Shown piece after piece: positions 181-64,000 of a stretch of 64,000 bases of DNA (positions within the stretch are counted from its first letter, which is position 1; each line of letters starts with the position of its first letter). A program made the translations under genes and the position numbers. Below the pieces are notes generated by a model. The model was not told the origin of the DNA. It was given only the letters and a program-made list of their open reading frames with translations, and ran no database searches. The stretch lies in assembly GCA_051294375.1 (NCBI GenBank), contig CM119263.1, positions 11,943,130 to 12,007,129 on the forward strand. The letters are read 5' to 3'. The DNA is from Paraspadella gotoi. Lineage: Eukaryota > Animalia > Chaetognatha.

Positions 181-390
181 TGATGAGTCAGAAATATTTA
201 TTATGAGTTAATAACAGACCCGTTAAATATAAGAAGTCCCTGAGCTTCAGATCAGCATGTAACACCGTGTTACAGGCGGGTTAAGGCGCCAGCGGGCGAG
301 AACCCCGCACTTTTCGGTTAAAGAAACGAACGACTTGCCTCCTGCACCAATGGCAGCTGATAAAGTGTTGGTGAATTTTAGTCCACCATA
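181..390 (-). mobile_element. Solo LTR, tRNA-containing TRIM family F1 (diverged)
   Basis: Reverse complement of TATGGTGGACTAAAAT..; flanks aggt/agat. Confidence 0.7.
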
Positions 391-1540
391 AGATGATCAC
401 TTAACTTCTAGAACAAATCACGCAGTGTCATGGCCATTGGCCAATAATCCAATGTATCAGAATTCCGTCTTCGATTTTCTATATGATTTCTTAAATGCTA
501 AAGGTACCGCGTGAGTCAAATCCCCTGACACAAAACAAATCATTGTCATGGTTTACTACATCAAGATAAACATAAACTGTTTTTTGTAATAGAAAAATGT
601 TTGACATTTTTTCTGCATAAATTTTATATTATATATCATATTATATTTATATTATATTATTTTATTAATAACTTGAAATTAATTTTTTTTCAACGATGTC
701 AAAATCGTTAAATTGATGGCTCCATACATTTTTTTAAGATCAAGTGCAATAAATCATTTTTATTCAGTATCCAAGTTTACAGTATAAATATTTTGGACTT
801 TATTATCTTTACAAGGTCAAAAACCGCAAAAAATCAATGGGAGGTATTAAAACTTTGTTTGGGTAAAAAACAAAATCATATTTTTAAAAATGTTTTGCTT
901 GATGAGAAATAATTTTTTTAGCGATAACAGGTTCATACCAACATATTCGGAAAGCATTTTAAGCATGTTTTAAACCCACTTTAACCAATGTTTTTAACAT
1001 TGTAATAACGTCAATATATTATGAAATTGATACAACCAATATAAAAATTATCTATTCATTTAATATGGTATGACAAAATTCTCTTAATGATTGGTAAGTC
1101 ATATATTAAATTTTTTTACTTCATATCATTTTTACTTCGTATCAGCGGATTTGGTTCACGGGGTAGCGCTATCACTTCGATTTGACGTTCTTTTAAGTTA
1201 GCAAAAATAACAAAAGAGCAACCGAATTTAATACGCATTTAATTGCGGGTCATGTGATTGCTTTTTGAGGTAAACACGTGGCGTTACAAAGATGATACAA
1301 TTGCACTTTTAAGGTTTTAGGGCAACTTACTTTCATACCAAATATAAGATAAATTGTTTAAGTAATACCCAAGTTAAGTACCATTTGTAACGTAAGTGTG
1401 ACAAACCGACAGATAGACATCCAAAAAGTGGCTTATTGAGTTGCTTCGCGAGTACTCGCTGCGTAACTATAAACAAAAATAATTTTTTAGGCGTTTTCTA
1501 TAAACTGTATTTTTCCCCTGATCTCGATCGATCCTCGAAG

Positions 1541-1948
1541 GGTGTCTGCTCAGCTATGTCGGCTCCTTCGGTCTCTTCGATCAACCGAATTCTTCGAAAC
1601 GCCTCCAGACTAAAAGCTCCTCGAAAACGGCACATCGACAAAGTCGGCGAGGACAATCTTGGCCGCGACGATACTTATGTTACAAGACGCTGTCACGACG
1701 ATAACATTCATTGCAGGCGGTCCAAAGACCGACTCTGTCAAAATGGTAGCATCGTCAAAAATAAACACGACAACAAAGAAGGCGAAACAAAGATGCAGGA
1801 AACTCCATCGACAGTTTGCACAGAAGGTCGAACCGCCTTTACGACGTCAAATACCTTGACGACCTCTAAATGGAATGAAAATAAAGTCGGAAAGAAAAAA
1901 ATCGGTTTTTTCATTCGCGAAATTTTGCGTACTGACTCTGGAGTATGA
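1541..1948 (+). CDS. Pax last exon: paired-domain end plus C-terminal eh1/octapeptide-like motif, no homeodomain
   Basis: AG acceptor at 1539-40, phase 0; reads GVCSAMSAPSVSSINRILRN...KIGFFIREIL, stop at 1948. Subfamily not assigned. Confidence 0.88.
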   Translation, partial: GVCSAMSAPSVSSINRILRNASRLKAPRKRHIDKVGEDNLGRDDTYVTRRCHDDNIHCRRSKDRLCQNGSIVKNKHDNKEGETKMQETPSTVCTEGRTAFTTSNTLTTSKWNENKVGKKKIGFFIREILRTDSGV

Positions 1949-2507
1949 ATTTCGCAATTATTATATCAAGATATCTAAAGAATTATTGAAACTGTATTCT
2001 TATATCTACTGATAAACCTGGCTATTATAACCGTTAAAAGATGGGCTGGCGGATCGAATGATATACGGACCGAAAAGTAAAGAGAGTACGAAAACATAGA
2101 ATGTGGGTACATTAAATGAGTAATTTTGATTTGAATTTAGTAGCTTTTGCATGATGAGGTCGTTAAGTCTATTATTTGGAGCATGGAAAAAGAGACGCAA
2201 AAATAAAAATTTAAATAAAAAAATTAAGAGAGACTTAAATAATAAACCTCCATGTTTGTAATGTAAAATTAGTTTAGAGAAAGGAAAATTAGGATTTTGT
2301 AAAAACTTGGTGAATTATAAAGAAAAGGTAATCCAAAAAATTCATCGTTTCCGCGATTCACAAAAACAAAATGAAATTTCCACCTTCAAACCAAAGAAAG
2401 TCTCACTACAGAGAAGAGAGAAATAGTCAAATATGGCCTGAATATTAAATATTGAATATTAATAGTCAATTTTCACTTTCTCGTTTCATTTTTTCCTCAT
2501 ATTGCCT

Positions 2508-3711: not shown

Positions 3712-3932
3712 TGTGGATCAGGCGCTTAGTGGGCTGAAGACTACTATCCGTAACTTCTATTCCCCCTCAGTAGCCATGGAACGGGTCCTGGGCTTGGAAC
3801 CAGGCTTGAGGGTTTTCCACGCTTATCTATCTTATCTATCATAAGCTGATAGATTTACTCAATAAGCCATCGGGTCACAACTGAAAGTGTCATGCTTATT
3901 AGCGGGGTGAACTAAGGCAATGCCCGACTACA
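3712..3932 (-). mobile_element. Solo LTR, TRIM family E (internally deleted)
   Basis: Homologous to 34698-34983; TG..CA ends; TSD cata. Confidence 0.8.
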
Positions 3933-7349: not shown

Positions 7350-7604
7350 TATGGCAACAGCCGGGTTGCCTGTGATGCCCATTGGGATGGGGCATCTCAC
7401 TGTTGGCTTTGGGGGCTTCCGACCATCAGTGACGCCTCCAGTCACTGGCGCGGTTACCCTAGGACGGTCTCGCTTTGCCAACGCAGAGGGAAGTCGTTAG
7501 GACTGTGGATGGAACACAACGCCTGGGATGGTGAGTTCCCCCTCTGAGCCAATGGATTTGGCTGAAGGATTGTGGACGTGAGGCGGTGTGAATATACCGC
7601 CACA
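7350..7604 (-). mobile_element. Solo LTR, family A (255 bp)
   Basis: Near-identical inverted copy of 48159-48413; TSD agat. Confidence 0.85.
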
Positions 7605-8417
7605 AGATTCACTTTTCCAATTGAAAAAATTATAACTATTTTTAATTGTAAACAATTGTAACTTTTTTGTTTTTCTTTTATATCTTTATTTATTATTATT
7701 TACTGCAATATGCAAATTAGAATATAATACTTACTGCAATATGCAAATTAGTATACAGTATACTACATATATAAATATGTAAATCATATTAAAGAGGAAA
7801 TTCATACAAATAATGCTTGAATCGATATGAAACATATGATTTTAAAAGATATTGATGATGAGAAGCTATATATCAATTTTAATACAAATAAAAATACACA
7901 CTTTATTTGAGCTGCCTTGGTTTAATATCAAAATTTTCTATTTTGGCTGACTTTCTAGTAGACGACGATCAAGAATCCAACAATGTTTTAAATGTTTATT
8001 TCTGTCGAGATAGACGGATACGAGGATTAAATAGTTTCAATTGTTTCACAATACACAACACGTTAAAATCCACTTAAATATGTGTACGACAAACCCTTTT
8101 CTACTCCCGGTCAGTTCATATTTATAAATATATTATTATTTAAACAAGAATTCAAAGAGGTATTATGTTTTAAAATCATATGCTTTACTAATTAAGCCTA
8201 TCAATTACCTCATTTTGGATTGTTTTCACTTGTTTGTTTTTCATTAAAAATGAGAAATTGCATAATATGTAAAAACTATAAATAGGCTCAAATATTAATT
8301 TTTTGTACTTTTAAACATCAAAACTACATTAAAAATTTATTTGAGCTATACTTTGTTAAAAATAAAAACAAATTTCTCATTTCATAAATTTTCAAAATTG
8401 TTAATTCTATTGCATTT

Positions 8418-9120
8418 TTAGTCGGATCTTCTTATCAGCAGATCCCGACTCTATAATTCACTTTGTCGGTCTGTCGGTCCACCCCTGCAATCTTGTCGGG
8501 CATTCACTTATATCATGTAGAACATCGAATTATGATAAATTATGCAAAAAAAAAAACGATGTCTATCCATCCATCTGTCTGTCCGTCCGTCTGTCCGTCC
8601 ATCCCACCTTAACAAAAAAAACCAATTACTGTGATTGAACAGGATATGAAGTTTCGATAGAATCGTCCGAGTGGAAATGAGTTTAAATGGAAAAAACAAA
8701 AAAATATATTTCATTATTTGAACACCAATTACTCATGAATGGATGGGGAAATTGACCTTAAATTTTGTATGTGAGTAAGAAAGTGTGTGATTAAGCTGAA
8801 AATCAAGTTTCCATGGAATCGTTTGAGTGGAAATGAGTTTAAAGTGAAAAAAAACAAAAACTAATTGATTATGTTTTTTTTTATTTTAAATGTAAATGCA
8901 AGATGTATAAATTAATCAAATTAATGAGTTAATTAATCAATTAGTCAATTAATTAATCAATTATTAATTAATCAGTCAATTAATCAATCAAAACAAATAT
9001 TTTGGATCAATTGACTAATTAATTAATTAATTTGAATTAATTAATTATTAATTAATTATTTATTATTTATTACAGATAATGATCGTGGGCAGATCCGACA
9101 TTGTTTGCTCAAACTTGTTT
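8418..9120 (+). mobile_element. Helentron-associated (DINE-1-like) HINE; more copies near 4307-5170(-), 9180-10100, 15822-16597, 32170-32730
   Basis: 5' GTCGGATCTGC sub-TIR with palindrome, (GTCY)n, 3' GCAGATCCGAC followed by GTTTGCTCAAAC stem, T-rich flanks. Confidence 0.7.
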
Positions 9121-10536
9121 CATTTTGGACGTATTGCAAAACCGAGAGAACTGAAAAATTGGGCAAGCGAACTACGGTTTTTAGTCGGATCTGCTTATCA
9201 GCAGATCCCGACTCTATAACTCACTTAGTCGGTCCGTCGGTCCCCGCCCCTCAATATTGTCGGGCAGTCACTTATATCATGTCAGAACATCGAATTATGA
9301 TAAATTATGCAAAAAAAAACGATTCCGTCCGTCCGTCCGTTCCGTCCGTCCATCCCACCTTAGCAAAAAACACTAATTACTCGTGATTGGATGGATGGAT
9401 TGGAATGAAATTCTTGTGGTGGGTAGGGAAGTGTGTGAATGAGCTGTATATGAAGTTTCGATGGAATCGTGCGAGTGGAAATGAGTTTAAATGGAAAAAA
9501 TAAAAAATTAAATGTCACTATTTGAAATTTTGTATTTGGGTAGGAAAGTGTGTGATTGAGCTGGAAATCAAGTTTCGATGGAATCGTTTGAGTGGAAATG
9601 AGTTTAAATGGAAAAAACACAAAAAACCTGTTTCACTAATTGATTATGCTTCTTTTTTCTTTATATTAAATGTAAATGAAGGATGTATTAATAAATCAAA
9701 TAATTAATCAGTTAATTAATCAATTAGTCAATTAATTAATCAATAATTTAATTAGTCAATCAATCCGTCCTTCCGTCCATCTTAGCAAAAAGCTCCAATA
9801 ATTCGTGATTGGCTGGTTGGATTGGAATGAAATTTTGTGTGTGGGTAGGACAGTGTGAGATGAAGCTGGATATAAGTTTCGATAGAATCGTGCGAGTGGA
9901 AATGAGTTTAAATGGAAAAAACATAAGTTGCATTTACTAAAATATTTTTACTTATTTTAACCAATAAATACTCTATTTAATCATAATTGGATGGATATTT
10001 TGAGTTTAAATTTTGTGTGTGGGTAGGAAAGTGTGTGACGAAGCTTGATACAAAGTTTCGGTGGAAACGTACGAGTGGAAATGAGTTTAAATAAAAAAAA
10101 TATGAGTCACATTTACTTGAATTTTAATACAAATAAAAATAAAATCGTTTTTTGTCTTTCTTTTATTTATTTTTTAATTATTATATATATTTTTTTCAGG
10201 CGCTGCCTTTCTGAATCGTTTAAAAACGAGTTCAGTCTCTCTCAGTCTCTGTCTGTCTCTCTCTGTGTGCGTCTGTCTCTCTCTGTACCGATCTCTTGCG
10301 TGATCGTTCGTTTTTTGAAAATTCTGATTATTTTTTTTCTTTCTAAAAAAATATATATTTGATCAGGCGCTGCCTTTCTGAATCGTTTAAAACGAGTTCA
10401 GGCTCTCTCCCTCACTCTCCCTCGGTCTCCCTCCGTCTCCCCCCCCTCTCTCTCTCTCTCTCTCTCTTTTAAAAAAAAAAAATTATTCACTTTTTTTTTC
10501 ACCACCGTTACAAGGCGACGAGTAAACGAGTTCCGG

Positions 10537-13498: not shown

Positions 13499-14110
13499 GT
13501 AAGGGCCTCAGTTGTTAATTTTTGTTCGGTGAACTTAATTTGGCCGCTATGACTGAGGGAAAAACGTCTTCCAGATATAATGGGAATGATTCAGAGAGTA
13601 AATCTTAAAGAACAGTTCTTGTCAAGTAAATATAAAGTTTCGATGGATTCGTATGAGTGGAAATGAGTTTATTTGGAAAAAAACATTAGTCGCATTTACT
13701 TGAATCTTTTTACTAATTTTACTAATTGACTTGAATTTTCATTATTTTTGCTTACTTACTTATTTAATTAATTCAATTGAAAAAATGATAATAGTTAAAA
13801 AATTTTTTTTTGTACCATAGTAACAGTTCATGTTGATCCTTTGCAAGCGATTTACATGTATTGGCACAGCCATTGGTTTGGTATGGTACGATCGGTTATG
13901 ATCAGTTAGGATCACAAATTGAAAGAATTATCGTCATTTATCATCTGATTAGCTGATCACCGCTTAATTATCGCAATAATTATTGTTATGTGTTAGTGAC
14001 AGAACCGGGACCAATGGCCGCTGATGAACGGTTGGTGAATTTTAGTCCACCATAGTAGGCAGATCCGACATTGTTTGCTCAAACTTGTTTTAACTTACAT
14101 CATTAATTAC

Positions 14111-14308
14111 TGGAACTTTAGACGCGGCGGTAGGCTTGCTACCGGTGATTTAACCGGCCCGTCACTCTTTTTGCAAGGACTAGGGTTAGGACGAGGGCTA
14201 GAACCAGTGACCAGTGGGTTCGGAGAGGAAGCGTTAGCCCAGTGCGCTATTAACGGCGCGGCTTGATAGGAAGGAATAGTCGTATCCATTTTGATTCCGA
14301 ACCCTACA
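14111..14308 (-). mobile_element. Probable solo LTR with tRNA-like A/B box, family I
   Basis: TG..CA ends, flanks ttac/ttat; minus strand TAGCGCACTGG..GGTTCTAGCC. Confidence 0.55.
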
Positions 14309-14515
14309 TTATACAACAAAGTTCTAACAATGGTTTTGAATTGAGTATTTGTTACTAGAGCACATGGCCCAACATTGTAAAATACCTTCCACTGTTTTCA
14401 GTGAAAGATGGGGAGCAAGCTTCAGCTTCAGCCTGGAATCATATGCTCAACAGAAAGGGATAAGGCGCTAAGTGGGCAAAAGATTACTATCAGCAATGGA
14501 ACAAAAATTTTGGCA

Positions 14516-14772
14516 TATGGCAACGGGAGGATAGCCTGTGATACCCGGGGCGCGAGGTATCTCACCAACTGGCGTAGGGCCTGCGGACCCTCAGTGACCG
14601 CCTCCTGTCACTGGCATGTTTATACCGGCACCGTCACATTTAAGCCAGAACCGGGATACCCAGGGATTGAACCCGGGACGCACGGATGGAATGAGATGAT
14701 TTAGCCTGCTCAGCCATTGAGACGAGGCTGAGGACGGACAGCAGTGAGGCAGCTTTAAGTCTTGCTGCCACA
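14516..14772 (-). mobile_element. Solo LTR, family B (257 bp)
   Basis: TSD ggca; minus strand TGTGGC..GCCATA, A box TGGCTGAGCAGG, B box GGTTCAATCC. Confidence 0.82.
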
Positions 14773-14898
14773 GGCATTTATTTTGAACTGATTTCTCTTA
14801 GCAGATATGTTAGAGGGAGAATTAAAGAATTTTAGGTATTTGTTAATATGCTTGAAGGAGAAAGTTTAAAAGAAAACTTTTGCAAGGATTAATGATTT

Positions 14899-15132
14899 TA
14901 TGGTGGACTAAAATCCACCAACCGTTCCTTAGCGGCCATTGGTGCAGGAGCCAAGTCATTCGACTCCCAACCCAAAGGTCCTGGCTTCTAGCCCGGTGGT
15001 CATCTCGCAGTTAAGAGGGACAGGGGGCTTAACCCACCTGTAACACGGTGTTACTGCCTGATCCGCAGCTCAGGGACTGCTTATATTGAACGGTTCTGTC
15101 ATTCACACATAACAATAATTACTGTCTCCTCA
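14899..15132 (+). mobile_element. Solo LTR, family F1
   Basis: TATGG..CTCA; TSD attt. Confidence 0.85.
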
Positions 15133-16827
15133 ATTTCATAGATCATCAATTGGACGTCAGCCTCGGTATCAAATCGGCAGTCAAATCTCGGCTCGACAAA
15201 TTTCTCTGTGGAATTGTGTTTGAAGATGGAAATTTTGCTGAGAAAAATGGTGACATACATATTAAGATACGCTTTCCATATGATTCTCCCGAAATTACTT
15301 ATATTCAAAATTGGTAATCGTTTTTACCTAGTTTTAAGGAAAAGTTTTGCAAATTTTCACAGACAAATTTGAGCAAACACTGGGTAAAGGCGGTAACAGT
15401 GGGAATGGCGGTAATGTAACCGGATCTGCCCTCGATCATTAGCGGTAATTAATTAAGACGCAGAGTAAGAACACGCTTAATTTGGTTTTCACCCAACTGA
15501 TCATTTTTACTTCACTCGTCACCATATTTGATTCATAATATTTTAGTTATAGTTATCGTTTGGTAATCGGAGACCTAAGTTACTATCTCCATGAGTGTCA
15601 ACCGCCCACAAGAAAAAGAGAGAAAAGAGCAATATTTGGCCAATGTGCATGATAAATTAGGTTGCTTATTATGCAAGATTAATATGCTTAATTAATTTTT
15701 AATTATTGAAAAAGATAGAATAATTTATTTTTTCAAAAAAAACATTTTTGTGTTCAGAATTTTATATTTACAGGGAAGTGATTCAAAACTTAGAAAATAC
15801 TTATCACCTCATCCTATTTTTATTAGTCGGATCTGCTTATCAGCAGATCTCTATAATTCACTTTGTCGGTCCGTCGGTCCGCCCCCTCAATCTTGTTGAG
15901 TATTCATTTATATCATGTCAGAACATCGAATTATGATAAATTTTTTAAATAAAAATGATGTCTGTCCGTCCGTCCGTCCATCCGTATGTCCCACCTTAGC
16001 AAAAAACTTCAATTGCTCCTGATTGGATGGATTGATTGGAATGAAATCTTGTGCGTGGGTGGGAAAGTGTGTGATTTAGCTGGATATAAGGTTTCGATGG
16101 AATCGTGCAAGTGGAAATGAGTTTAAATGGAAAAAACAAAAAAATATATTTCACTATTTGAACGTCAATCACTCATGAGTGGACGGGGCGATGGACTTGA
16201 AATTTTGTATGTGGGTAGGAAAGTGTGTGATTAAGCTGGAATTAAGATTTGATGGAATCGTCCTTGTGGAAATGAGTTTAAATGGAAAAAACAAAAAACC
16301 TTTTTCACTAATTGATTATGCTTCTTTTTCTTTTTATATTAAATGTAAATGCAAGATGTATTAAATAATCAAATAATTAATCAGTTAAATAATCAATTAG
16401 TCAATTAATTTATAAATAATTAATTAATCAATTATTCAATCAATCAATTCATTTATAAATTAATTAATTATTTAATCAATAAATCAATTAATTTATAAAT
16501 TAAATTATAATTTTAGTTTATATAGTTTGTATTAATTAATTAAATAATTACCGCTAATGATCGTGGGCAGATCCAACATTGTTTGCTCAAACTTGTTTAG
16601 TGTTGAATCATGTGCGTTAAAATAAAAAAAATTAATTGAAGATACTTAACCAGATCTTGTTCTAATTATTAATGCAATGCGATAAGCACTATTGCAAATT
16701 CCAATCCATCCATCCAATCACGAGTAATTGGAGTTTTTTCTAAGGGGGTACAGACAATCAGACGGACGGACATCATTTTTTTCTAAACATTTATAACGTT
16801 AAATAATAAATATTTTTATTAATATAC

Positions 16828-17027
16828 TGAAGAGACAGTAATAATCATTTTGAATTAATGACAGAACCGTTCAATATAAGCAGTCTGAGTTTCAGATCAG
16901 GCTGTAACACCGTGTTACAAGCCCCATCCCTCTTAACTGCTAGGAGACCACCGGGTCGGGAGACAAATGACTTGCCTCCAGCACCAATTGCCGCTGATGA
17001 ATGGTTGGTGGATTTTAGTCCACCATA
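16828..17027 (-). mobile_element. Solo LTR, family F1
   Basis: TSD atac. Confidence 0.85.
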
Positions 17028-17503: not shown

Positions 17504-17924
17504 GACAGATTTGTCAATTATATTTCAAATTTGTGCATAATGAAGACAGTGAGAGAGAGAGAGAGAGATACAGAGACAAAGGGCAAAGTTTTCCAACACA
17601 GATTTGAGAAAGGACAGTGGTCAATGTTGAGGACAGATTAAGTTGTGAACAGAATAGAATTAGTTTGTGAAGGGAAATTGAAATGGTGATAGTGAAGTGG
17701 CAGTGGCCACCCAGGGGCTGCCCAAGTAGCCGCTAACGCAGATTCTACCTCGGTCCCCCAGGAGGAAGAAAGGGCACTTGCTGCTGAAGAGCCAACCGCG
17801 CCCACAAAAGCGCACCTGGATGATAAGCAAAAGCGCCCTAAGAACGTGGGTCACCTGTCCCTCCCCTACCACCAGGGGATCACTGAGTCATTGGTGTGGG
17901 TGCTCGAAAAGCAGGGGATCTCCA

Positions 17925-18310
17925 AACCAAAAGATAAAATCCCCAGACCGAAAACATCAGGAGCCGTCTATTGGGCGCCCTAAGCAGGGGCGGGCAACCA
18001 AGCCTGCACAGCAGCATAAGTGGACAAGACAGGCAAGTCTCTAACAGACCGCTTCCAACAGCATACAAAGCCCTACCGCGATGCCCGAGAGCATTACTTA
18101 TCTACTGTAGCCGAGCACACGGCAAATACTGGCCATCTATTCAGAGAGTTGGACTGTCTCGTGCTGTCCAATGACCCAAACCGGTTTTCAAGAGGTATTA
18201 GAGAGGCAATTTACATCAAAGCTCTCAAGCCCTCTTTGAATTGTGATGGAGGACGATTCGACCTCCCTCCAAGCTATGATCCACTCAACGAGACTGGCGG
18301 AGACCTATGA
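17925..18310 (+). pseudogene. Penelope GIY-YIG endonuclease remnant
   Basis: PKDKIP..GAVYWAP*..C..*VDKTGKSLTDRFQQH..VAEH..GH..REAIYI..PSLN with in-frame stops. Confidence 0.88.
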
Positions 18311-22715: not shown

Positions 22716-22849
22716 CGTTACTCGTCAAAGAATCAGCTGTACCTATGGCGCCGGAGGTACCTCGAGCTCCTCCCAACCCAAAGGATTCGGGTTTGTGCCC
22801 TGCTGATCCACGCAGGTAAGTCGGCATCATCTAACACATTGGTGAGCCC
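22716..22849 (+). mobile_element. About 123-bp LTR plus tRNA-Trp PBS, family G (truncated TRIM)
   Basis: tRNA-like core TGGCGCCGGAGG..CTCCCAACCCAAAGG shared with F1; ends ACA followed by t-TGGTGAGCCC. Confidence 0.7.
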
Positions 22850-36892: not shown

Positions 36893-37413
36893 CAGTAGCA
36901 TCCGTCTAGAATTTCTGAGTCGGCAAGCTCTGTAACTCGAGTACAAATAATAATTTGAAAGATAGTTTTTGTCGTGTTATCGAGTACTCATATGGCGACT
37001 CCCCCTTCGGTAACCCATTGCTCTACGACCACTTTTGGGACATAGCAGTTTATTATTCCAGTTTAATCAACACACAGTAAGTTGGTGTTCAAATAGTGAA
37101 ATATATTTTTTCCCCGATCGCTAAAAAGAAAAGAAAAACCAAAATTATATGAGGTTTTTGATTTTTTTTTTAAATAACGAATGGCCGAGTGGTTAAAACT
37201 AGAACTTCGACGCAGAATGGAATGTAGAGATTCGAATCCCACTCAGTGTAATTCTTAATAAACTGCTATGTCCAAAGTGGTCGTAGAGCAATGGCTTACC
37301 GAAGGGAAGTTGCCATTGAGTACTCGATAACAAAGACAAAAACACTCTTTCAAATTATTCATTGTCTCGAGTTACAGAGCTTGCCGACTCAGAATTCTAG
37401 ACGGATGCTACTG
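36893..37413. mobile_element. Short copy of the CAGTAGCATCC MITE family
   Basis: TIRs and TA flanks. Confidence 0.85.
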
Positions 37414-40908: not shown

Positions 40909-41639
40909 ACATAACACTAACTATTAGTACTAATTATTTTTTTTAAATTTTTTTCTATTAACAATGTCTATAGAATAAATATGAATAAGTAAACTTTTTT
41001 AAAAAAAATTTATGCATCTTTCACTATATTTCTGTCATATAAAAACAAAAAAGGAATTTTGCATTGATATTACTTGGATATCCAGCATATGAAATTATAA
41101 CGTTTCAAAAATACAAAAGAAATATAATAATATTGAACAGTGAATTTTTTTTTTATGCACGGACAGTAACGTTACGCCATTTTCATTGCTGTCCTAATCG
41201 ATGATAAGTCATGGTAATTTTTAGTGCGGATTTTGCTCGTTGACGCCAAATTAGGCTCCAGTTGATAAATTAATGCAGTTGACAATTATGCCCGGTTGAC
41301 CAAATTAATCTTAATNNNNNNNNNNNNNNNNNNNNNNNNNTCAAGTTTCGATGGAATTGTTTGAGTGGAAATGAGTGAAATGGAAAAAAACAAAAAAATG
41401 TGTTTCACTAATTGATTATGCTTTTTATATTAAATATAAATGCAAGATGTATTAATTAATCAAATAATTAATCAGTTAATTAAATAATAAGTCAATTAAT
41501 TAATCAATAATTAATTAATCAGTCAATTAATCAATCAAAACAAACATTTTGGATCAAAATAATTAATTAGGCAATTAATTAATTAATTAATTACCGATAA
41601 TGATCGTTGGCAGATCCGACATTGTTTGCTCAAACTTCT

Positions 41640-42400
41640 TTATGTTACAACGTGTTATGATCTGTTAAGATCATAAATTTAAAGTCAGAAAACGTTACCA
41701 AGAATTATCATCATATTAGCTTATTACTGCTTAATTATTGTAGACATTGTTTGCTCAAACTTGTATTTTTGCAAATCAAAAACTTAGATTATTCTTTTTT
41801 CAAAACAATTTCATTCTTTCATTCTCTCAATCATTAGCCTATTTATTAATATTGATACAATAAGCAACTAGATAAAAACACTTAATAAAACACCTTAAAA
41901 GCAAGGTGAAAATGTTCAACGTCGCGGCTTAAAGAGGCAACTGACTTTTCCTCAATTTCAAACATTAAAAATAAGCCAGATATTCACTTTCTTCGTATTA
42001 ATCGTCGTCATTGCAACATTCTGTCATGAATCGGGAAACTTGGGACTCTGATGTCGAAATCCTGCCTTCGAACGTTGAATTTTTTGTTTCCCCAAAAAAT
42101 TAAAAGTGAAACTACAGCTTTATATAATTTAATTTGTACAAATTTTTTTTGAAAATCATTTGGCCGAGTGCTTAGCGCGCCGGATTTCAATGTTACGAAA
42201 AGGTTTCGGGTTCAAATCTGGCTGAAGCATCTTTTTATAATAAGTTCTGATGTCCCAAAATTGGTCGGAGAGCAATGGCTTACCGAAGGGGGAGTAGCCA
42301 TATGTGTACTCGATATCAAGACAAAAGCTCTCTTTAAAATTCTCATTTGTACTCGAGTTACAGAGCTTGCCGTCTCAGAAATTCTAGACGGATGCTACTG
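41640..42400. mobile_element. Right half of the CAGTAGCATCC MITE family (left part lost in gap)
   Basis: Colinear with about 32760-33510. Confidence 0.75.
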
Positions 42401-42893
42401 TATATGATTTATTTTATTATCTATCTATTATTTATCTATAAAATATTTAAATTAAACTTTTAAAATAAATGATAAAAAAGAACATGTAACACATCTAGCG
42501 AATTTCTAAAATTAGTTTGTAGCTTTAGAACTAATTTTTTGCTGTTTTTGGTAACTTCGGGTTTGTAAAAGTAGTTTTTCAACATAATAAGCACCTAAAA
42601 CTATTTTTTTAATATATTAACTAACTTGCAATGCAATATTCTAGTCAGGAATGAACTAATTATATTAAAAAATTAATTTTAAATAGAACTTGTTCAAGAA
42701 ATCTACGAATATATATGAATTTTGACGCTCGTGGCACTTTGGCGCTCCTGGGAAGGGCCAAGAATTTTAAAAAGTCTAACAAAAGTCATATATTCAGATA
42801 GAACGGAAAAAAGGAAAAGAATGCCGTTCTCCTGAGATTTCTATCTTAAAAAGAATCGGATTTAAATGTGTCTATTACAGGTTCAGTCTAAAT

Positions 42894-43980: not shown

Positions 43981-46874
43981 CATTGATATCGTTTTGACCC
44001 TTTGAAAACGTTATCAATCACATGAAAATAAATTTTTTTTTGCTTACAACATCAATTTTTTATTGAAAACTGACTTTAGATTTAAATAAAATTAGCAAAA
44101 TAGTTTTTTATGATATTAAAACATGATCTACTCTGATAATAATTGAATAAAAATGTTATGTTAGAAAATTAAATAAAACAAAAAAAATAGCCAAAAACCC
44201 GAAATTTCATATTTCAGCAACTTTAACACCCCTGGCTCGGGCGAAAACTTTTTTTTTTTTTCAAATTAAACTTACATAGTTAAAGAGCTTTAAAAAACGA
44301 AAAGAATGACACCCAGACTGATTGCTTAATTAAAATATTGTCGGATTCAAATGTGTCTACTGGTCAACAAGCCTCTCGGCAGACGAATGGTAATGAGCCA
44401 CTCAACGGACGATGTGGCTCGGAGGGTGTTTTCATCTTCCTCAAGAAGTCGTTTGGGAAGACAGCCTCTCCATCACGCCTCTGGAGAATGGAGGTCGTGC
44501 CTCTATTCCCTCGCGGGGGTGTTTCCTTAACGTCCTCTCCGCGCGCTCGTCAACTTCCCCAGCCTTTTTGACGGTGGAGTTCAAGGCAGTCCCGCGGCGG
44601 TTCAGCTACTCAGGGCAGTGGGCTTTTTTCTCCGCCAGGAGTCGATCCTCGCCCCGGTGTTTTTCTCTGGGACGGCTTGCTTCATCAGACCTCGCTTCTT
44701 CCCTCCAAGTTGGATTCAATCCGGAGTTTAGCGTCCTCCAGTCTTGCTCCGGAGCGTTCAGTCACATGCCTCTGAAGCCACTCTCGCAGTCCCGCTTCTC
44801 CAATGCTGCTCTGCCGGGATTCGGTGGGAAGTTTTCCGCGTCTATCGCTCCGAAGTGGATCTCAATCGCCCGACATCTCTGGATCCTCAAGCGCTGGAGG
44901 AGCTGGAGTGGTGCTCGACGCTTCACCCAGAAGACTGCGTCGTGCCAGTGGAAGACCTGATTTTGGAGGTTTGCGCCCACTTTGTGATGATGGACCCATA
45001 ACAGGAGGGTTGGGGCTTCCTCTTTCAGGCCGAGTTTTACCAGGGGACCCGAGAGGCTGCAGATGCCCTTCACCATTTCAACGTGCAGGAGTTCATTGTG
45101 TTGAGGAACTCCCTCTTGATTCGGCAGTTCTCTACGATACACCATTCTCCCTTGGCTGACATTTTGGTTTCACTACTGTCTTCAGCGCACGTGCAGCCAC
45201 TCTTGATCACCCACTCTCTCGGGATCTGCATCACCGGGAGTCATGTTGTCGGAGGAGAGCTTGGTGACAGAGGGGACGCCTGGTTGCGTATTGGAATCTC
45301 CTTTGGCGAATCTTTGGTCAGATCTGCGAGACCTTCGGCACTCTTTCCATCGACCTCTGCATTGAAGGATTCGGCGCAGTTGCGCCGCTTCTCTTGAAAG
45401 GTGGAGGCATTAGCTTTGGGAGGTTCAAATGTTTCCTCCTTGGGATGCGGCGTTGGTTCTATGCGTTTTGGAGGTCGTCGCAGTCTCCCGCTCACATTCT
45501 TCGTTCTCGCTTTGACCAGGAGGCCGTCGGAATCGTCTTGCTTAGGTGCGACCACTCCAACTTTTTGCTCGCTGCAGACCAGACTTTCTATTCCGTCCAG
45601 GCCTTCCAGGATAGATTGGGTCAAGCACATGGTCCCGTCATTCTAGGTGGACGCCCTCCCGGCGTCATCGCGTTGCCCCATTGAAGCTCTAAGGAGTGGC
45701 TTCGAGTCCGCGAATCTTTGGCGCCCATTCACGTGTTCCTTTTCTGCGCCCCCTCGCCGCCTTTTGCTCCTCTCGCCCCAACATTTTGCGGCGATGCTTA
45801 AGGCACTATTTTTGGAGGCAGATGTTGATGCCCCACCAGGTTCTACGCGCGCCATGGCAGTCTCTGAACCCTTCGCTCGCGGCGTCGATCTCGGCGTCTT
45901 CCTCAGGGCCGGAGACTTGTCTGGAGACCAGACGTTTTTCCGATTCTTTCGTAGGGACATCTCATGGGGCGCTTTGGTTGGCGTTTCTTGGGACTAGCAG
46001 CAGCACTTCGATACTTTTTCGTTTGTCTTTTGTTTTTCTGCTTTACCTGTCTGGTCACAGCGCGGTGTCTCGCCTTTTGGAGAGACAAAAGGCTTATGTG
46101 GGGGTGGTTTTGATAAGAATCATAATTTGGGGATGTGCATCGTTTCTAAACTATTGAGTATTTTTAAATAAATTTGGTACCGACGATAGGGAATTTAAAA
46201 TACTATCTATATGCAAAATTTCATAAAATCGGATAATCCGTTCAAAAAGTTTATGGCAATAAAACAGTCGCCGAAAATCGCGCTTCAAATCGATCAACTT
46301 TCGCTTAAAATCGAACTCGTTTGATCCAATAAGGATTATGAACTATTGTAGTACTAAGCTTTAAACCGATAATAGCGGATTATGCGCCGAACCGCGGCCT
46401 CATAAGAGAAAATAGAATAAGCGAAGCCCGAAAAAAGGAATCCTTACAAAATTAATCACAAAAATAACATAATTATAACAGAATAAAAAAGGGAAAAGAC
46501 AAGAGAGCCAAAGAAGTAATAATATTGAAAGTATATTGACTGATCTCACCAGCAAAACTACTATTAAACTAACTCAATTTAATATCGTTAATTCAAGATT
46601 AAGAATTCACTATCGTCACTTCACGATTAATTTTCATTTTTGAATCATTTTAATTTTATGATAACAGATTTTAATATGATAGCAATAAAACTATAATTAA
46701 AAGATAATGATTGATAATGGTAAGTAAATTGATGCAATGAATAAAATTAATTAACTAATGATGATGACGATAGTTTAATATCTAAAATTTGTCATATCTG
46801 AATCCGGCTTATTTTATTATGAACAAGTTTGAGCAAACAATGCGATTTGACTAAGATAATTTAGCGGTAATCAG

Positions 46875-48158: not shown

Positions 48159-48413
48159 TGTGGCGGTATATTCACACCGCCTCACGTCCACCATCCTTCA
48201 GCCAAATCCATTGGCTCAGAGGGGGAACACACCATCCTAGGCGTAGTGTTCCATCCACAGTCCTAACGACTTCCCTCTGCGTTGGCAAAGCGAGACCGTC
48301 CTAGGGTAACCGCGCCAGTGACTGGAGGCGTCACTGAGGGTCGGAAGCCCCCAAAGCCAACAGTGAGATGCCCTATCCCAATGGGCATCACAGGCAACCC
48401 GGCTGTTGCCATA
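48159..48413 (+). mobile_element. Solo LTR, family A
   Basis: TGTGGC..GCCATA; TSD gttg. Confidence 0.85.
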
Positions 48414-50568
48414 GTTGCCTAGTTACTAAACTACTGTTCTTGAGGCGCCGTAAGACGATTTGGCGTAACGAGTTGTTGAAATAAAAGATTCATTTGAGGA
48501 AAAAAGTAAAAATCCCTAACTGCCCAAAATGTAAGATAAAAATAAACTGTAAAATTGTAAAATGTAATTCGAATTGTATTTGATAAATGTGCGAAAGTAA
48601 GGTATTCTTCTCTTTCTTCTCCCCATTCCCCCTTTTCTTACATCCGATTTTTCCGCTTTTCATCTCGCTCTTGCTCAGTCCATCTGTCTCTCTCTCTCTC
48701 TCTTTGAAGTTTTAAAAAAAAATTAAACATTTTTCTAATAGAGATTTCCGTTAAAATCTGACTACCCAAATTGCAAACGAGATTGCCAGAAATTCAGGTA
48801 AAAAACAGTTGTAAAAACACACGATTCCGATAGCGTTATATCTTAAGAGCTAGCCAAATTCGTCTTATGGCATTTGATAAAGGTTTTAATATCAAACAAG
48901 CCAGGGGAAATGCACTAAGTCATCTCCGGAGAATTTTCAAACCTTGTTTTTACTATAGAAATGAACGGGAAATTTTGCTTTTTGAAAATTGTAAACGAGG
49001 CTAGGGTATGTTAATATTATAAATATTACTTTGAATTATGAGATTTAGAAAGCCTCTTGTCTCAAGAGCTTGCCAAATTTTTTTTTTCATTATTGACCAA
49101 ACTCTTCATAGTAAACCAATGTGGTAAAGTCCATTGGTCTGGTTTGACAACATGAAATTTTTATTTAAGAAGAAATTAAAAGGAAGGTTGAGAGAAAAAA
49201 CTGATTTTTCCTGATATCTTTTGAAGGAACAAAGATACAGGGATGGCAATAGTACCAAAATGAAGCAATAATCATTGGGCACATACAAGTTACAATATTA
49301 GAATTATTTTTGCTGAAACCTCTTTACAGGGTGAGTGTCAAACTAAGTCAAAATTATAATGAATTTTAAAACTAATGAAACCCCATAAAAATAAATGAAA
49401 ATTAAATTCTTTTTAGTGATTCTGAAAGAAAAAAGGCTAAATTGTACTCTAGTAAAACTTTAAAGTTTTTTGGATAAAGAAAATATAACAGGGATGTTTA
49501 CTGAAATGAGCCGGAAGACATTCAACTTCTTCACTTTTCTATAATGAAATAGGCGAATTTTTTAATTATTTAACTCTCACAGGCTATATACTTTCATAAT
49601 ATCCCAAAGTTAATGTAATTCATTATATTTTTTTACCCAGAAATTATAAAATAATAGAAAGTTATGGAATCCTTTTGTTCGTTTAAGGAAAAAAAATTAA
49701 CTAGTGGAATTAAAGTTTGTAAGAGGAAGTCAGAATCGGCGAAAATCTTAAAAGGCGAAAATGTTGAAAAAGGAGTGGAATTTTGGTTGTTTTTGGTCGA
49801 TTTCTTCTAAACCCATGGGCCAATTTAAACGTAACTTAAGATTTACATTATTCCAGTCATTCTCTATCCAAAAATATAAAAACATTATGAAAAAAGGTTT
49901 GGGATCGAGTTTAGGAATTTGGTTCTATTATTGATAATAAAAAGGCCATAAAGAAATAGTAAAGGAATTTAAGGAAAACGTGAAGAGAGGGAGGGAGAAA
50001 GAAGACTTTGGACCAGGCGCGTCACACTGCGTCAAAAGGGCGTGAGGAACCTGATTGGTCAGCGGTCGCGTCTTGTGACGCGACTTCCGCCAATTAGGAG
50101 TTGAGGGCGATGCGCGGGACCCCTGAAAATATAAGAATATAAAAAGAGAGAAGCAACCTAAGAGACAAGAGCTCTCCAAATAGAAAATCCAACGAGGATT
50201 ATTGTGAAAAATTGTAATATAAAAATAAACAATTTTGTAATTAACAAAAATGTGTTTGTGTTTAATTCTTCTCTAAACATTACAAAAAACTACAAGGAGC
50301 TAGGAGTTATCTCTATCACTTAGCCACCTAATGCTACAATAAATAATATTTCTGCAGAGTTTGTACGCTACAATTCACTTTTCCTACACTACATTTCCTA
50401 CAATAAACTACACTTCGTTGAAACTCACGGGCATTTAAATTTAGATAGTTTTTGATAGGCTTTAGGAGTTGAAAATTCGATTTCATAATTAGTATAATTT
50501 GTTTGTTACTCACTTTTAAAATTTAATTTAATTTAAATTTAGAATTTTTACTACGCTTTACTTCACAG

Positions 50569-51940
50569 GTGCTGATGACGAATTTCTTGTTTAACACTGG
50601 CAAATATGCTCACGATTCTTTGACCGCCAAGACAAACACGTCGTCCAAAGTGCAAGTCCATTGCGAAGCGATCAACTTGACATTTGATCCCAGTAAGAGA
50701 TGAATTATTGAATTTACTATGTTTTATTTTTTTTTAAATTTTCGTTACTTTTTAATAGACATGACGGATTTAACGAATTCAACGTCGACGCTCTTCCACG
50801 AGATGTGGAATTTACAAAACACTTGTCCGTTTTGGCTCCTACTTTTAGTTTTTCCATTGATTAATTTAAAATCCGCTACCTTCTTCACCAAATTCAACGT
50901 GCTCGGAACTTGTGAGTGTCCAGATGATTTTCTTTATTATAAATGCTTTGATCGATACTTCACTGACTCACTTAATGATTTTATTTTTTCAAGTTTCCAT
51001 CTTGTATTTGTTTTTCTTCGTCTTTTATCACGCCGTTAAATGGGGACCCTGCGTAAAATTTGATCAATCAAATAATTCCGTTGTTGGTGAGGACTGAGGA
51101 TTCACCATTAATTCTATTACGCCAAATCGTAATTGGTTTTTATTTTCGATGATATTTTTTTAGAGTTCAGCTCATCTTTCCCCGCCCTGTGCGGTACGCT
51201 GTCGTTGGCCATGTTTATCCATAACGGGGTCATGGCTATTCTTCGGAATCAGAAAAAGCCACAAAACAACACGCGCGACCTTTCAATTGCTTACATTCTC
51301 GTTACGATTACCTACATGTACGATTCTACAAACTGAATCTCACTTTGAACTCCGGTTTTCCAAATGTTATTTCCATGCCCTAGGTTCGTGGGCGTGGTTT
51401 TCTACGTTGCCTTTCCGCACTACGACAAGAATCTTATTCCAGACAATTTCCTCAACTTCTTTCCTCCCAACGACGTGTTTAGCGTCGTCGCCCGTGCCTT
51501 TCTTCTCTTGCAGATGGTCTGCGTCTTTCCTCTGCTCATCTACATTCTCAGGATTCAGGTTCAATTAATTAACTCATCACCAAATAATTTTTTTGACTCA
51601 ATTGTTTACTTTTTCCTTCATCCTTCATCCTTTTTTCGTCATCTCTTAGGTGATGCACACCTTTTTCAACTCCGTCTGGCCCTCTCTCTACCACGTATTG
51701 ATTTTCAATGCGTTTCTCCTGGGAATCTGCGCCACAGTGGCTTGCCTCTACCCGTCGGTCGGGGATATAATTCGCTATGCTGGTTCGCTGTGCGGCCTGG
51801 CGCTCGTCTTCACGCTGCCGAGCCTGGTTCACATGCTCAAACTTCGCGAAGACGAGAAGCTGACGTGGGAGGCGCTGGCCGTTCACGTGGGCCTCATCCT
51901 CTTCGGCGTCGCCGTATTCGTCTCGCAGTTCTTCGTTTGA
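50569..51940 (+). CDS. SLC38A9: SLC38A9-like lysosomal amino-acid transporter, 3' six exons (50569-50692, 50759-50911, 50994-51086, 51164-51317, 51384-51558, 51650-51940)
   Basis: VLMTNFLFNTGK, NLKSATFFTKFNVLGT, LSLAMFIHN, NQKKPQNNTRDLSIAY, IPDNFLN, IIRYAGSLCGL; all introns GT-AG and in phase. Confidence 0.9.
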
Positions 51941-61993: not shown

Positions 61994-62039
61994 GTTACGA
62001 TCACGAACCTCAGTTTTAGTCCCTCCTTACGTACATGTA

Positions 62040-62515
62040 CATTAAGGCGTAGTAAAATTTCTAAATTTAACTTAATTAAAATTATAAAAGTGAGGAACGA
62101 ACAACATTATATTAATGAACATTTATGTAATAAAAAAATTTATAAATTTTACAATTTACGCAGTAGGCCATATTTATACTAGTACTAAACCAATAAATGT
62201 TAAAATTTCAAAACAGTTTTTTCAAAAAATTTTTTGCAGATTTGGATTCGTCATAAAAAGTTGATAGAAAGAAATATAACTCTTTTTGAAAAATTCCTTC
62301 ATTAAGTGGGTCAAAAATTAGAAAAAGCTATATTTTAAGCTGAAAATTAATTTTTTATATATTAAATAGTTTTTTTCAATTTTTAACCCACTTAATGAAA
62401 GAATTTTTAAAAATGATTTATATTTCTTTTATCAACTTTTGACGAGGAATTCAAATCTGCAATCAAAATTAAGAAAAGCTTTATTTGAAATTTTTCGATT
62501 TTATAAGGATAGTAC
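62040..62515. repeat. Abundant AT-rich dispersed repeat (copies or relatives near 2541-3152, 20030-20410, 26410-28055, 33860-34330, 35403-35990, 47850-48060)
   Basis: Shared blocks such as GCAGATTTGGATTCGTCAT and TTCATTAAGTGGGTCAAA. Confidence 0.8.
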
Positions 62516-64000
62516 TGTGGACGAACAAATAGAACATGCAACCTCGGTCAAACCACTTGACCTTAACAACCTGACCCCGCTCGTTTCCCCAGTTTATTTG
62601 TGGTCAAAATGTTGACCTTTGTAAATACCATTGTAATAGACTTAGCATCTGAGCATTTTAACTGTTATTGTTTATACCATGTTGAAGAATAATTCATTCT
62701 TGATCTGAAACTTGTCGTCCATACGTGGTAAGCCCGACGTGAAAAAACATAAAAAATAAAACGAAAAACAAAAAACAAAAGAAAAACAAAACAAAAATAA
62801 AAACTCAAACGAAATAAATTTTTACGCGTTTTTGCCATTTTGTAAATCTTTTTTTTTTTTTACAGTGAACAACTTAAAACCTGAATCAATTCTTTTTTTT
62901 TTAATGCCACGATCGTACCACCTGAGCGTCACCCGCCCTCCAACGCCTGCCGACGAAGAGGAATCGACCATGCCTGTAACAACACGCAACGCCTCTCAAT
63001 CCGACAGCGCTGGCCGCGACGACGCCTTCCACGACGCCGCCGCCTCGACGTCCGCGACGCCTCTCGAATTGCAAATCGAGAGTCTTTTCCAAATGGTCTT
63101 CGAGATCAACAGAAAACTCGCCGCGGTCACGGAAAGGCCCAATCCCCCTTCAGCGGACGCAAGCACCGCTTCAACGGAGTTGCCTCCATCGGTGGAAGAC
63201 GGCGCCAGTGACGCCACCCCCACAGGCAACCCGACCCTCTCACGCCCTCCAGCGCCTTCCAGCGCTTCAGCAAGAAGGAGAAATCCCAAGCTGACGACCT
63301 TCGACCCAGACCACATCGAGGAGTGGCAAGACCACGCCGCTGTGGAATTCGGCGCCACCGGCGTCACCGAGCCGGCGGAGAAGAAGGCGCTCATCCTCAG
63401 CGCCATCCCCATCTCCCGCCACCGGCTAATCCCACATGGTCTCCGCATCGACGAAGGCCCTGAAGCTTACAAAAATTTGATTCTCCACTTGCAGAAAATT
63501 TATGGTGAGGATGCCAACAGACGTGCCGCAAAGGCGCTGAAGATGACGTCACTGAAAGGCGTCACTCCTTCCCAGCACCTCTCCGCGATCGACGCCGTCT
63601 TGGAAGGTCTCACCATGGACCACATCAAGGCTGCCATCTTGGCTGCCTCCCTCCCTCAAAGCGTCAGGGAACACGCCATCAGGAAGGATAAAAAACCCGC
63701 CGACATCGCCAAAGACGCCGACGAATTTTTCCTTCAGGCCAGCTTCGCAGCTCTGACCGCACTTCATCCTCAGTGAATGCCGTCACTTTCAGTGAGGTCA
63801 CAGTGGACGAGCCACTGGAGCTTCTTGATGAATCGGCAAGCAACGCTGATGACGCCGCCATCTCCTACGCAAACGCAGTTTGCCGGCCGCCGCCGCGCTC
63901 AACGCAGTGCCCTGCCCCGCAGCAATGCCCATCACAGCAGCGCACGCAGCAGCAACGGCGCCCAACATTAACGCCCCGCTCCCCGCCACACCGTGAACCG
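62516..64000 (+). mobile_element. Gypsy LTR retrotransposon (CsRn1-like): LTR 62516-62723, PBS 62726-62742, gag ORF 62832-63776
   Basis: TGTGGACGA..TCGTCCATA LTR, PBS TGGTAAGCCCGACGTGA; Gag KLTTFDPDHIEEW..F..GVT..PSQHL resembles CsRn1-type (DUF7041-like) Gag. Confidence 0.82.

Follow-up and report, generated by a model that had tools for sequence, protein, structure and literature searches.

Descriptions of LTR retrozymes concern mainly plants, where the elements bear hammerhead ribozymes, and the published model for their spread runs through RNA circles (PMC4918200). Animal retrozymes are described as elements without LTR, PBS or PPT, and ligation by RtcB has been shown for those that carry hammerheads (PMC7229834). 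Helenus elements, which are polyphyletic in Kojima's view, can include more than 10 families within one genome and are also known to use the Trp primer (PMC10886601); the available text of that paper reports no ribozyme in them. The known link between twister ribozymes and retroelements, as the available sources present it, concerns RTE non-LTR elements and not LTR elements.

The window analysed here (the whole 64-kb stretch of Paraspadella gotoi DNA) holds families of LTRs that are predicted to carry a tRNA-like Pol III promoter together with a type-P5 twister ribozyme. The first-pass annotation had taken the many families on one primer to suggest an undescribed parasite community, a novelty that does not hold against the available Helenus text, where many coexisting families and the Trp primer are already known (PMC10886601).

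LTR families and retrotransposon hallmarks

Self-BLAST and direct reading of the window yield eight LTR families (A, B, C, E, G, H, I and J) of ~100-300 bp, and the eight of the first-pass annotation are thereby borne out, although the letters used here are our own and may differ from the earlier ones. Its claim of different tRNA-like cores is not shown, since the families are related to one another, falling into related clusters in sequence comparison between families; alignment between them is barely possible.

Family A is represented by solo LTRs at 14899-15132 (+; A2), 16828-17027 (-; with deletions) and 36470-36672 (-; A5), each with an exact TSD, by a solo LTR with a deletion at 181-390 (-; A1) whose TSD has one mismatch, by a fragment at 13990-14054 (-) and by an LTR-internal-LTR unit at 28368-28891 (+; A4). 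Two solo LTRs of family B, at 48159-48413 (+) and 7350-7604 (-), share 97.6% identity and both have exact TSDs, as do the solo LTRs of family E at 14516-14772 (-) and of family C at 3712-3932 (-), the latter with its middle replaced. The solo LTR of family H lies at 14111-14308 (-) and has a TSD with one mismatch, the LTR of family G at 29383-~29587 (+) is cut at its 3' end, and the short LTR of family J, which is related to A, lies at 22738-22838 (+). Families C and I also provide full units at 34698-35402 (-; C2) and 40164-40913 (-).

The TSD tally covers the eleven two-ended copies and omits G, J, the family A fragment and A4, whose 3' LTR is cut and contains Ns. Exact 4-bp TSDs occur at seven of these copies, and all seven sequences named in the first-pass annotation are present; one mismatch is found in three copies (A1, H and I) rather than in the two it had counted, and C2 is the sole copy without a TSD. 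No copy has a duplication as long as 5 bp, an exact 4-mer match has a probability of 0.0075 by chance, and the termini are TG/TA..CA/TA in every two-ended copy. Public contigs show sharp, tail-less ends with random flanks at 14899, 15132, 14516 and 34698. SINE identity is rejected on the fixed TSDs, the lack of 3' tails and 5' truncations and the sharp contig ends; together with the PBS and the paired LTRs, these features support the earlier view that the families are non-autonomous miniature LTR retrotransposons (TRIMs). Contig depth summed over A, C and E exceeds that of the flanks by some four orders of magnitude, a measure that does not equal copy number.

Three LTR-internal-LTR units are present, spanning 524-750 bp and thus <1 kb, with internal parts of 186 (A4), 121 (C2) and 188 bp (I). 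A4 consists of a 5' LTR (28368-28601), a non-coding internal region with a purine tract at its end (28602-28787) and a 3' LTR that is cut short and contains Ns (28788-28891); its PBS at 28603-28620 has 13 of 18 letters complementary to the 3' end of tRNA-Trp. C2 is built from a 5' LTR (35105-35402), a PBS from 35103, an internal region (34984-35104) that is also present in contigs from four sequencing runs and a 3' LTR (34698-34983). The unit of family I has its 5' LTR at 40625-40913, a PBS from 40623 (17/18) and its 3' LTR at 40164-40436. The three units of LTR-PBS-PPT-LTR organisation noted previously are these, with the qualification that the PPT, clear in A4 and short in C2, is weak in the I copy. 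In public contigs, a purine tract precedes other copies of family E.

A PBS is seen in four of the eight families, as had been noted, at 28603 (A), 35103 (C), 40623 (I) and 22840 (J). These sites fit tRNA-Trp genes of other organisms at 11-17 of 18 letters, with two tRNA-Trp(CCA) genes matching the PBS. The statement that all families share one primer holds for these four, and no PBS is seen next to the B, E, G or H copies in the window. In a separate scan of viral contigs for the PBS, 22 loci turned up that lack a tRNA and stay below a twister score of 19, and they were taken as chance.

A candidate autonomous partner begins near the end of the window. Its LTR at 62516-62723 (+) shares five terminal bases with B and E at both ends, with neither a tRNA-like part nor a twister, and is followed by a tRNA-Trp PBS at 62726-62743 (+; 16/18). 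The gag-like open reading frame at 62904-63776 (+) is assigned to Retrotrans_gag by ESM Atlas (0.94), which serves as a lead only, and returns no Pfam match and no word-index homolog. The element runs past the end of the window, where its reverse transcriptase and integrase would lie. On the host side, a quick tree built from 40 of 120 matches places SLU7 in a clade of eight proteins, separate from the sampled insects, chelicerates and molluscs.

Predicted promoter and twister fold in the LTRs

The predicted tRNA-like Pol III promoter sits in the 5' half of the LTR, with the twister fold just 3' of it. The 5' LTR of A4, for example, presents a 5' hairpin, then the tRNA-like promoter (28401-28473) and then the predicted twister (~28481-28546). 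Compared with 60 shuffled sequences, the tRNA-like part scores higher than all of them in A4, C, E, G and H, mostly by a narrow margin, and fails to do so in A2, B, I and J. ARAGORN finds no tRNA at default settings, calls one in A4 at a 90% threshold and returns 36 and 198 calls, mostly noise, at relaxed thresholds. A and B boxes are seen in the LTRs, save that family B has no B box within one mismatch. Downstream of the promoter, the sense strand has 0 T4 runs against 3.9 in shuffles (P=0.01). The count begins with the tRNA-like part and, for G, stops where the LTR is cut, which leaves aside T4 runs that precede the promoter in the 5' LTRs of C2 and I or lie just past G.

The type-P5 twister fold is clear in five families (A, B, C, E and G) and decayed in two (H and I), and none is found in J. 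The first-pass annotation's reading of these elements as TRIMs was sound, and missed this predicted fold. The twister in the A4 5' LTR scores 19/21, with a predicted cut after 28499. The B copies have twisters at 48287-48353 (21/21, predicted cut after 48307) and 7410-7476, G has one at 29512-29579 (21/21, predicted cut at 29532/3), E at 14575-14642, and that of A5 at 36523-36588 (predicted cut at 36570/69) is matched by a strict descriptor of the fold. C2 has one twister per LTR, at 35184-35253 and 34774-34843, with predicted cuts at 35235/4 and 34825/4, giving a predicted monomer of 410 nt. The A2 twister (15012-15077) is decayed in the window copy and its fold is restored by five majority letters from contigs, the C solo LTR retains the 3' half only, and H retains a recognisable 5' half (~14112-14170). 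Both LTRs of I hold damaged versions, near 40777 and 40293.

The strict descriptor has three matches in the window versus one in 100 shuffled windows (0.01 per shuffle). All seven window sites with a twister score of at least 19/21 lie within these LTRs, and the top score in 140 LTR shuffles is 18, reached once. These controls overstate independence, because the descriptor was written after the motifs had been seen and the families are related. The scorer does not recover H, I or J, and the score of E, 18, is at the level of AT-rich background sites. A sequence-only model built from A, B, C, E and G puts 15 LTR sites in its top ranks, among them the held-out sites of I (E 0.005 and 0.97) and H (0.88).

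B, G, A4, A5 and both C2 LTRs hold the full set of core letters (UAA, GA, GC and U..AAGC), E departs from it at two letters, and in H and I the core is damaged. The T1 pseudoknot pairs at 3/3 positions in six families through four triplet types (permutation P=0.017), T2 is intact or restored by the majority letter, and P5 helices of 4-7 bp are found in all seven copies tested. Where the majority letter of the contigs, taken from four runs per search, differs from the window copy (A, E and C), the twister is restored at 10 of 10 of the core positions listed. P2 pairs are complete (4/4) in E and G and 3/4 in B, and in A, C and H the helix is a non-canonical 3 bp with a bulged base, while I shows no clear P2; published twisters have four P2 pairs, an altered number of which might disrupt the active site (PMC5408937). 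MAFFT set the 3-base and 4-base P2 classes out of register.

Comparison with Rfam places Twister-P5 (RF02684) as the top match for G, at full length and with 16 bits against a threshold of 37.6, and twister-P1 as a weak match on B (15.2 against 67.2). With cmscan, A5, C2 and positions 14000-15200 return no twister, and neither does the whole window, where the Rfam scan yields only microsatellite-driven miRNA matches. A metagenome scan with the A/I twister pattern gives no match, and a scan for hammerhead cores finds none inside these LTRs. Penelope-type hammerhead cores occur elsewhere in the window.

Possible routes of spread

Helix P1 of the predicted twister is replaced by a self-complementary segment of 6-8 bases. 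Its folding as a hairpin within one molecule is unfavourable (+2.7 to +6.0 kcal/mol), whereas its self-duplex energy is -4.8 to -11 kcal/mol in six of seven representatives. Its four central bases form a Watson-Crick palindrome in 5/7 versus 5.5% of LTR tetramers, and the P1 of C is also palindromic with the majority letter of the contigs. This shrinkage to a self-complementary segment suggests that the twisters may cleave as dimers through P1, although P1 is dispensable in mini-twisters (PMC5408937), so a weak P1 does not by itself imply that a dimer is needed.

On balance, we regard these families as non-coding TRIMs with a tRNA-like promoter and a predicted twister that probably spread as RNA circles, with a Trp-primed Gypsy element doing the copying. 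Pol III would initiate within the 5' LTR, at its tRNA-like part, and transcribe through both LTRs, whose twisters would pair via their P1 palindromes so that each LTR is cut at U/A, freeing a 410-484-nt monomer without a terminal repeat. A host tRNA ligase would circularise the monomer, a tRNA-Trp-primed Gypsy reverse transcriptase would pass the junction and rebuild two LTRs, and the Gypsy integrase would insert the DNA with a 4-bp duplication. Such a route would explain how transcription by Pol III that begins inside an LTR can still lead to two rebuilt LTRs. The predicted circle of C2 has a folding z of -2.65 and that of I, at -0.04, folds no better than shuffles. Tandem (LTR-internal)n arrays, which are expected from circular templates, are not present in the 64-kb window.

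It is unlikely, if worth weighing, that an active twister acts instead as an end-former on linear RNA, where usually only the 3' copy would be cut and no circle made. The 3' cut would stand in for the absent Pol III terminator and leave a repeat of ~100 nt, from the tRNA start to the cut site, for ordinary strand transfer. The units indeed have no T4 terminator, unlike most Helenus LTRs examined, which have a tRNA and then a T-run; the layout supplies a ready R region, and the absence of tandem arrays fits as well. Yet the ribozyme is identical in both LTRs, and cutting would be expected at the 5' copy too, a dimer would put both sites in active centres, and the two-ribozyme plant retrozymes build up as circles (PMC4918200). 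A less probable reading still takes the twister for a passenger or fossil that came from another retroelement, and would have the elements move as ordinary Helenus TRIMs. A fossil would not preserve the compensated pseudoknot triplets and differing palindromes found across barely alignable families, and majority letters restore the core throughout the positions listed; on the other hand, Helenus spreads without a ribozyme (PMC10886601), family J combines a PBS with no detected twister, and P2 is non-canonical in three families with low Rfam scores.

Largely refuted, and very improbable, is the reading of these units as tRNA-derived or ribozyme SINEs of the Schistosoma Sm-alpha type, which would owe their insertion to a LINE or Penelope enzyme. 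Sm-alpha likewise places a ribozyme after a tRNA promoter (PMC6765202), single units make up most copies here and the window contains Penelope-type hammerhead cores, but fixed 4-bp TSDs, TG/TA..CA/TA ends and sharp, tail-less contig ends stand against it, as do the PBS, the PPT and the three paired-LTR units.

A wider proposal is tentative and stands somewhat short of an even chance. The families may belong to an unrecognised animal class of Pol III, tRNA-Trp-primed LTR retrozymes in which the ribozyme is interchangeable, a twister here and a hammerhead in two gall-wasp Helenus families. A twister that works only as a dimer via a palindromic P1 would then be a coincidence detector, by which two-LTR transcripts are cut and circularised and solo-LTR transcripts and the finished single-twister circle are spared. 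If the circle reading is true, the elements would be LTR retrozymes of an animal, LTR elements with a twister and bearers of a natural dimer-built twister, none of which was found in the literature searched, where the RNA-circle route for such elements appears only in plants and with another ribozyme. Twisters would gain a testable biological job, the seven diverged natural variants would be material for studying P1/P2 tolerance, and ribozymes would be predicted in other repeats filed as TRIMs or SINEs, such as Helenus-2 of Synergus.

Comparison with known systems

The predicted ribozyme shares with the type-P5 twister (RF02684) the order P2'-GA-T1'-P1-UAA-P2-GC-P3-P4(U-T1-AAGC)-P5, both pseudoknots and the core letters, and differs in a reduced P1, the presence of P3, a P2 of 3 bp with a bulge in A, C and H and sub-threshold Rfam scores. 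Its anatomy agrees with the published Schistosoma mansoni twisters in Table 1 of PMC8501958. In Penelope-like elements and amphibian retrozymes, minimal hammerheads likewise have the cut-site helix reduced to a palindromic loop (PMC6765202, PMC7229834); neighbouring copies can complete each other in those dimers, which belong to another ribozyme and element class. A natural dimer-dependent twister was not found in the literature searched.

Helenus/TRIMp3 elements (Kojima 2024, PMC10886601) share a tRNA-like sequence in the LTR, a 4-bp TSD in animals, a Gypsy-type PBS, many families per genome and, in two wasp families, the Trp primer. In most Helenus LTRs examined, the tRNA sits close to the 3' end, ahead of a T-run, whereas here it occupies the 5' half, ahead of the predicted twister. 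This comparison was made by eye and by short-motif search of the supplement sequences; five twister-loop 8-mers give three matches in that supplement, none in a twister context. In Helenus-2_SyJa and Helenus-2_SyUm, the Trp-primed wasp families, a hammerhead core is visible by eye 3' of the tRNA.

Plant LTR retrozymes (PMC4918200) share the non-coding LTR-PBS-PPT-LTR organisation with one self-cleaving ribozyme per LTR (here predicted), the 4-bp TSD, solo LTRs and Gypsy-type primer and end signals. They carry a type III hammerhead, use a tRNA-Met primer and measure ~700 nt, in contrast to the predicted twister, tRNA-Trp primer, animal host and predicted 410-484-nt monomers described here. RNA circles have been seen for them and are predicted for the present families, and a tRNA-like Pol III promoter is predicted in the LTR here, unlike in the plant elements as the available text describes them. 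With a predicted twister in their LTRs, these elements would be classed as LTR retrozymes and no longer as plain Helenus-like TRIMs.

Families and identity of the miniature LTR elements

Self-BLAST and direct reading of the window sort its short GC-rich units into eight families, lettered A, B, C, E, G, H, I and J, with digits for copies. The first-pass annotation had proposed about eight families with 4-bp TSDs, and this count holds: among the 11 copies with both ends, the TSD is exact in seven, has one mismatch in three and is absent in one, and it extends to 5 bp in none (0/11). An exact 4-bp TSD is expected by chance at 0.0075 per copy. Three units show LTR-internal-LTR organisation and, in a window scan, a primer site directly follows the LTR in families A, C, I and J, both counts agreeing with the first-pass annotation. 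The complementary tRNA-Trp sought for these sites is represented by two tRNA-Trp(CCA) genes, which match 13/18 (A), 12/18 (C), 17/18 (I) and 11/18 (J) letters and come from a metagenome scan of other organisms, not from the host. The claim of a single primer for all families is shown for these four; no site was seen in the other four. On two metagenome contigs (L001 and L002), eukaryote-type tRNA genes are densely arrayed, 9 on one and 19 on the other, in an order common to both.

Contigs from public runs show sharp ends and random flanks at 14899 and 15132 (A2, 14899-15132), 14516 (E, 14516-14772) and 34698 (C2, 34698-35402), cover the C internal region and place a purine tract before E copies. 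No SINE behaviour was seen in the window copies or these contigs, which, with the fixed TSD length, bears out the earlier view that the units are not SINEs. The tRNA-like LTR part annotated earlier exceeds shuffles in A4 (28368-28891), C, E, G and H and does not in A2, B, I and J. Two clusters of related families emerge, B-E-G and A-H-I-J, and C has weak links to each. This relatedness points to a single radiation instead of eight independent tRNA captures and leaves the proposal of different tRNA-like cores unsupported. The elements have the features of TRIMs and those of Kojima’s working definition of the Helenus group (tRNA-like LTR, 4-bp TSD), and the units are almost certainly real TRIMs.

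The paired LTRs of C2 and of I (40164-40913) are 89% and 77% identical, with many single-base homopolymer indels that may reflect assembly error rather than age. The same AT-rich repeat end is abutted at 35403-35480, at the 5' end of C2, and at 62440-62515, at the 5' end of a Gypsy-like LTR. These two insertions lie four bases apart in the repeat, in the same orientation and with 93% identical flanks; the common site may account for the absent C2 TSD or mark a target preference.

A twister pattern in the LTRs

A feature overlooked in the first-pass annotation is a type-P5 twister pattern located immediately 3' of the tRNA-like part, at 100-170 bases into the LTR. A strict descriptor, whose architecture was compared with Table 1 of PMC8501958 (seen in part) and the Rfam consensus, matches G (29383-~29587), B2 (48159-48413) and A5 (36470-36672) in the window and yields one match per 100 shuffled windows; it was composed after the motifs were seen, so the controls favour it. 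A 21-point score gives 21 for B2 and G, 20 for B1 (7350-7604) and A5, 19 for A4 and twice for C2, and 18 for E, while among 140 shuffled LTRs the highest value is 18, attained once; H, I and J are missed by this score. All seven sites scoring at least 19 over the whole window lie inside these LTRs, and a score of 18 includes AT-rich background. The Rfam model Twister-P5 aligns end to end with G at 16 bits, below its threshold of 37.6, and twister-P1 partially matches B at 15.2 bits; searches of the whole window, of the 14000-15200 stretch and of A5 and C2 separately give no Rfam twister. When a sequence-only model is built from five families, its top 15 sites all lie in the LTRs and include sites of the held-out families I and H, these two at weak E-values. 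The twister fold is very probably present in at least five families.

Across six families, the T1 pseudoknot is built from four different triplet pairs and is paired in every one, a result equalled by 12/720 permutations, and the P5 helix closes in 7/7 copies tested. The contig majority and the window copy disagree at several core positions: at five in A2 and one in E, among the rows listed (33 more exist), and at four in C2. Each core majority letter, again among the rows listed, restores the conserved AA, pseudoknot T1 or T2, or one of the helices P1 to P5. Another two differences, both in C, fall in the P3 loop. Against a maintained fold counts the P2 helix of A, C and H, which has three pairs and one bulged base, as twister P2 has four pairs and an altered number might disrupt the active site (PMC5408937, in part).

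Whereas the usual type-P5 twister has a hairpin P1, the elements here have a segment that is 8 bases long in B, E and G and 6 bases long in A, C, H and I. Its computed cost as a hairpin is 2.7-6.0 kcal/mol, and its computed gain as a self-duplex is 4.8-11 kcal/mol in six of seven representatives. The inner four bases form a Watson-Crick palindrome in 5/7, with three different sequences (LTR tetramers, 5.5%); the G segment pairs through wobbles and that of C becomes a perfect palindrome with the contig majority letter. This resembles the palindromic loop of dimer-cutting Penelope and amphibian hammerheads (PMC6765202, PMC7229834, both in part). Efficient cleavage is also possible for twisters that have no P1 (PMC5408937, in part), so dimer cleavage is advanced tentatively. 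A strictly dimer-dependent twister as part of a wider animal class is possible, though somewhat less likely than not.

Surrounding genes and repeats

Repeats are abundant in the window, an AT-rich stretch of animal DNA whose genes have short introns. Host genes encode SLU7 (53323-~62000) and an amino-acid transporter (50500-51940). The introns of SLU7 are very short apart from one of 7 kb, which is packed with element fragments; a quick tree (40/120 matches) groups SLU7 with eight proteins, apart from the sampled insects, chelicerates and molluscs. Penelope-type minimal hammerhead cores lie at 17499(-), 19478(+), 23680(+) and 27727(-); the first two are divergently oriented on either side of a fragment (17696-18310) that presumably resembles a Penelope endonuclease end and has no Pfam match. 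A repeat at 36891-37416 is bounded by long terminal inverted repeats, has a tRNA-like segment at its centre and recurs as halves at 31866-32112, 33262-33512 and 42152-42402, with relaxed ARAGORN matches at 33269-33338 and 42158-42228; it may be a MITE that carries a Pol III promoter. The GC-rich, broken coding stretch at 44300-46100 has no Pfam match and is taken to resemble a tyrosine-recombinase (DIRS-type) retroelement. Repeats at 8400-9500, 15820-16600 and 32170-32830, which combine a four-base microsatellite with short inverted repeats in sub-terminal position, are presumably like Helitron-associated non-autonomous elements.

Proposed replication and comparison with known systems

The proposed cycle would begin with a Pol III transcript spanning both LTRs. 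From the promoter onward, seven units contain no sense-strand T4 run against 3.9 expected (P=0.01), in a test that began at the tRNA-like part, ended at the cut end of G and excluded T4 runs upstream of the C2 and I promoters and just beyond G; Pol III could thus read through both LTRs. Cleavage at both twisters would free a monomer without terminal repeat, of 410 nt for C2 and 484 nt for I (predicted folding z, -2.65 and -0.04). For plant retrozymes, the published route is ligation to a circle, with a Gypsy reverse transcriptase then copying across the junction (PMC4918200, in part), and RtcB has in vitro ligase activity on animal hammerhead retrozymes (PMC7229834, in part). The monomer here would likewise be closed and copied past the junction by a Gypsy enzyme. 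The candidate partner is a Gypsy-like element that starts at 62516 and leaves the window at its right end; its LTR has five terminal bases identical to B and E, its primer site matches tRNA-Trp in 16/18 letters, and its gag-like ORF has no Pfam or homolog match. The strongest alternative is a linear route, where cleavage by the 3' twister alone would stand in for a terminator. Active twisters and spread by the circle-based retrozyme route are moderately favoured.

Both the presence of many Helenus families in one genome and the use of a Trp primer have been described before (PMC10886601, in part), and in these respects the community is not novel as first suggested. Reading of most parts of its supplement and a whole-file motif search revealed no twister. 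Reviews and a 2026 preprint, as far as accessible, place LTR retrozymes mainly in plants and describe animal retrozymes as non-LTR (10.64898/2026.07.22.740005, PMC7229834), and the twister-retroelement link found in print concerns RTE non-LTR elements (PMC8501958, in part). The open literature searched, at the level of listings and passages, yielded no paper on a twister within an LTR element or on a dimeric natural twister, in a set without most subscription papers, preprint supplements, Repbase and Dfam (further comparison sources, in part: PMC7761336, PMC5680766, PMC10085705, PMC13725137, PMC8557442). The elements would work like plant LTR retrozymes but lack their hammerhead, as a core scan found none inside these LTRs. 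The only Trp-primed Helenus families found in the supplement portions covered, Helenus-2_SyJa and Helenus-2_SyUm, are both from wasps. By eye, a three-helix hammerhead core is present in their LTRs immediately 3' of the tRNA-like part, the same position as the twister here. The accessible text of PMC10886601 makes no mention of this hammerhead, and both families are, judged by sequence, likely insect LTR retrozymes.
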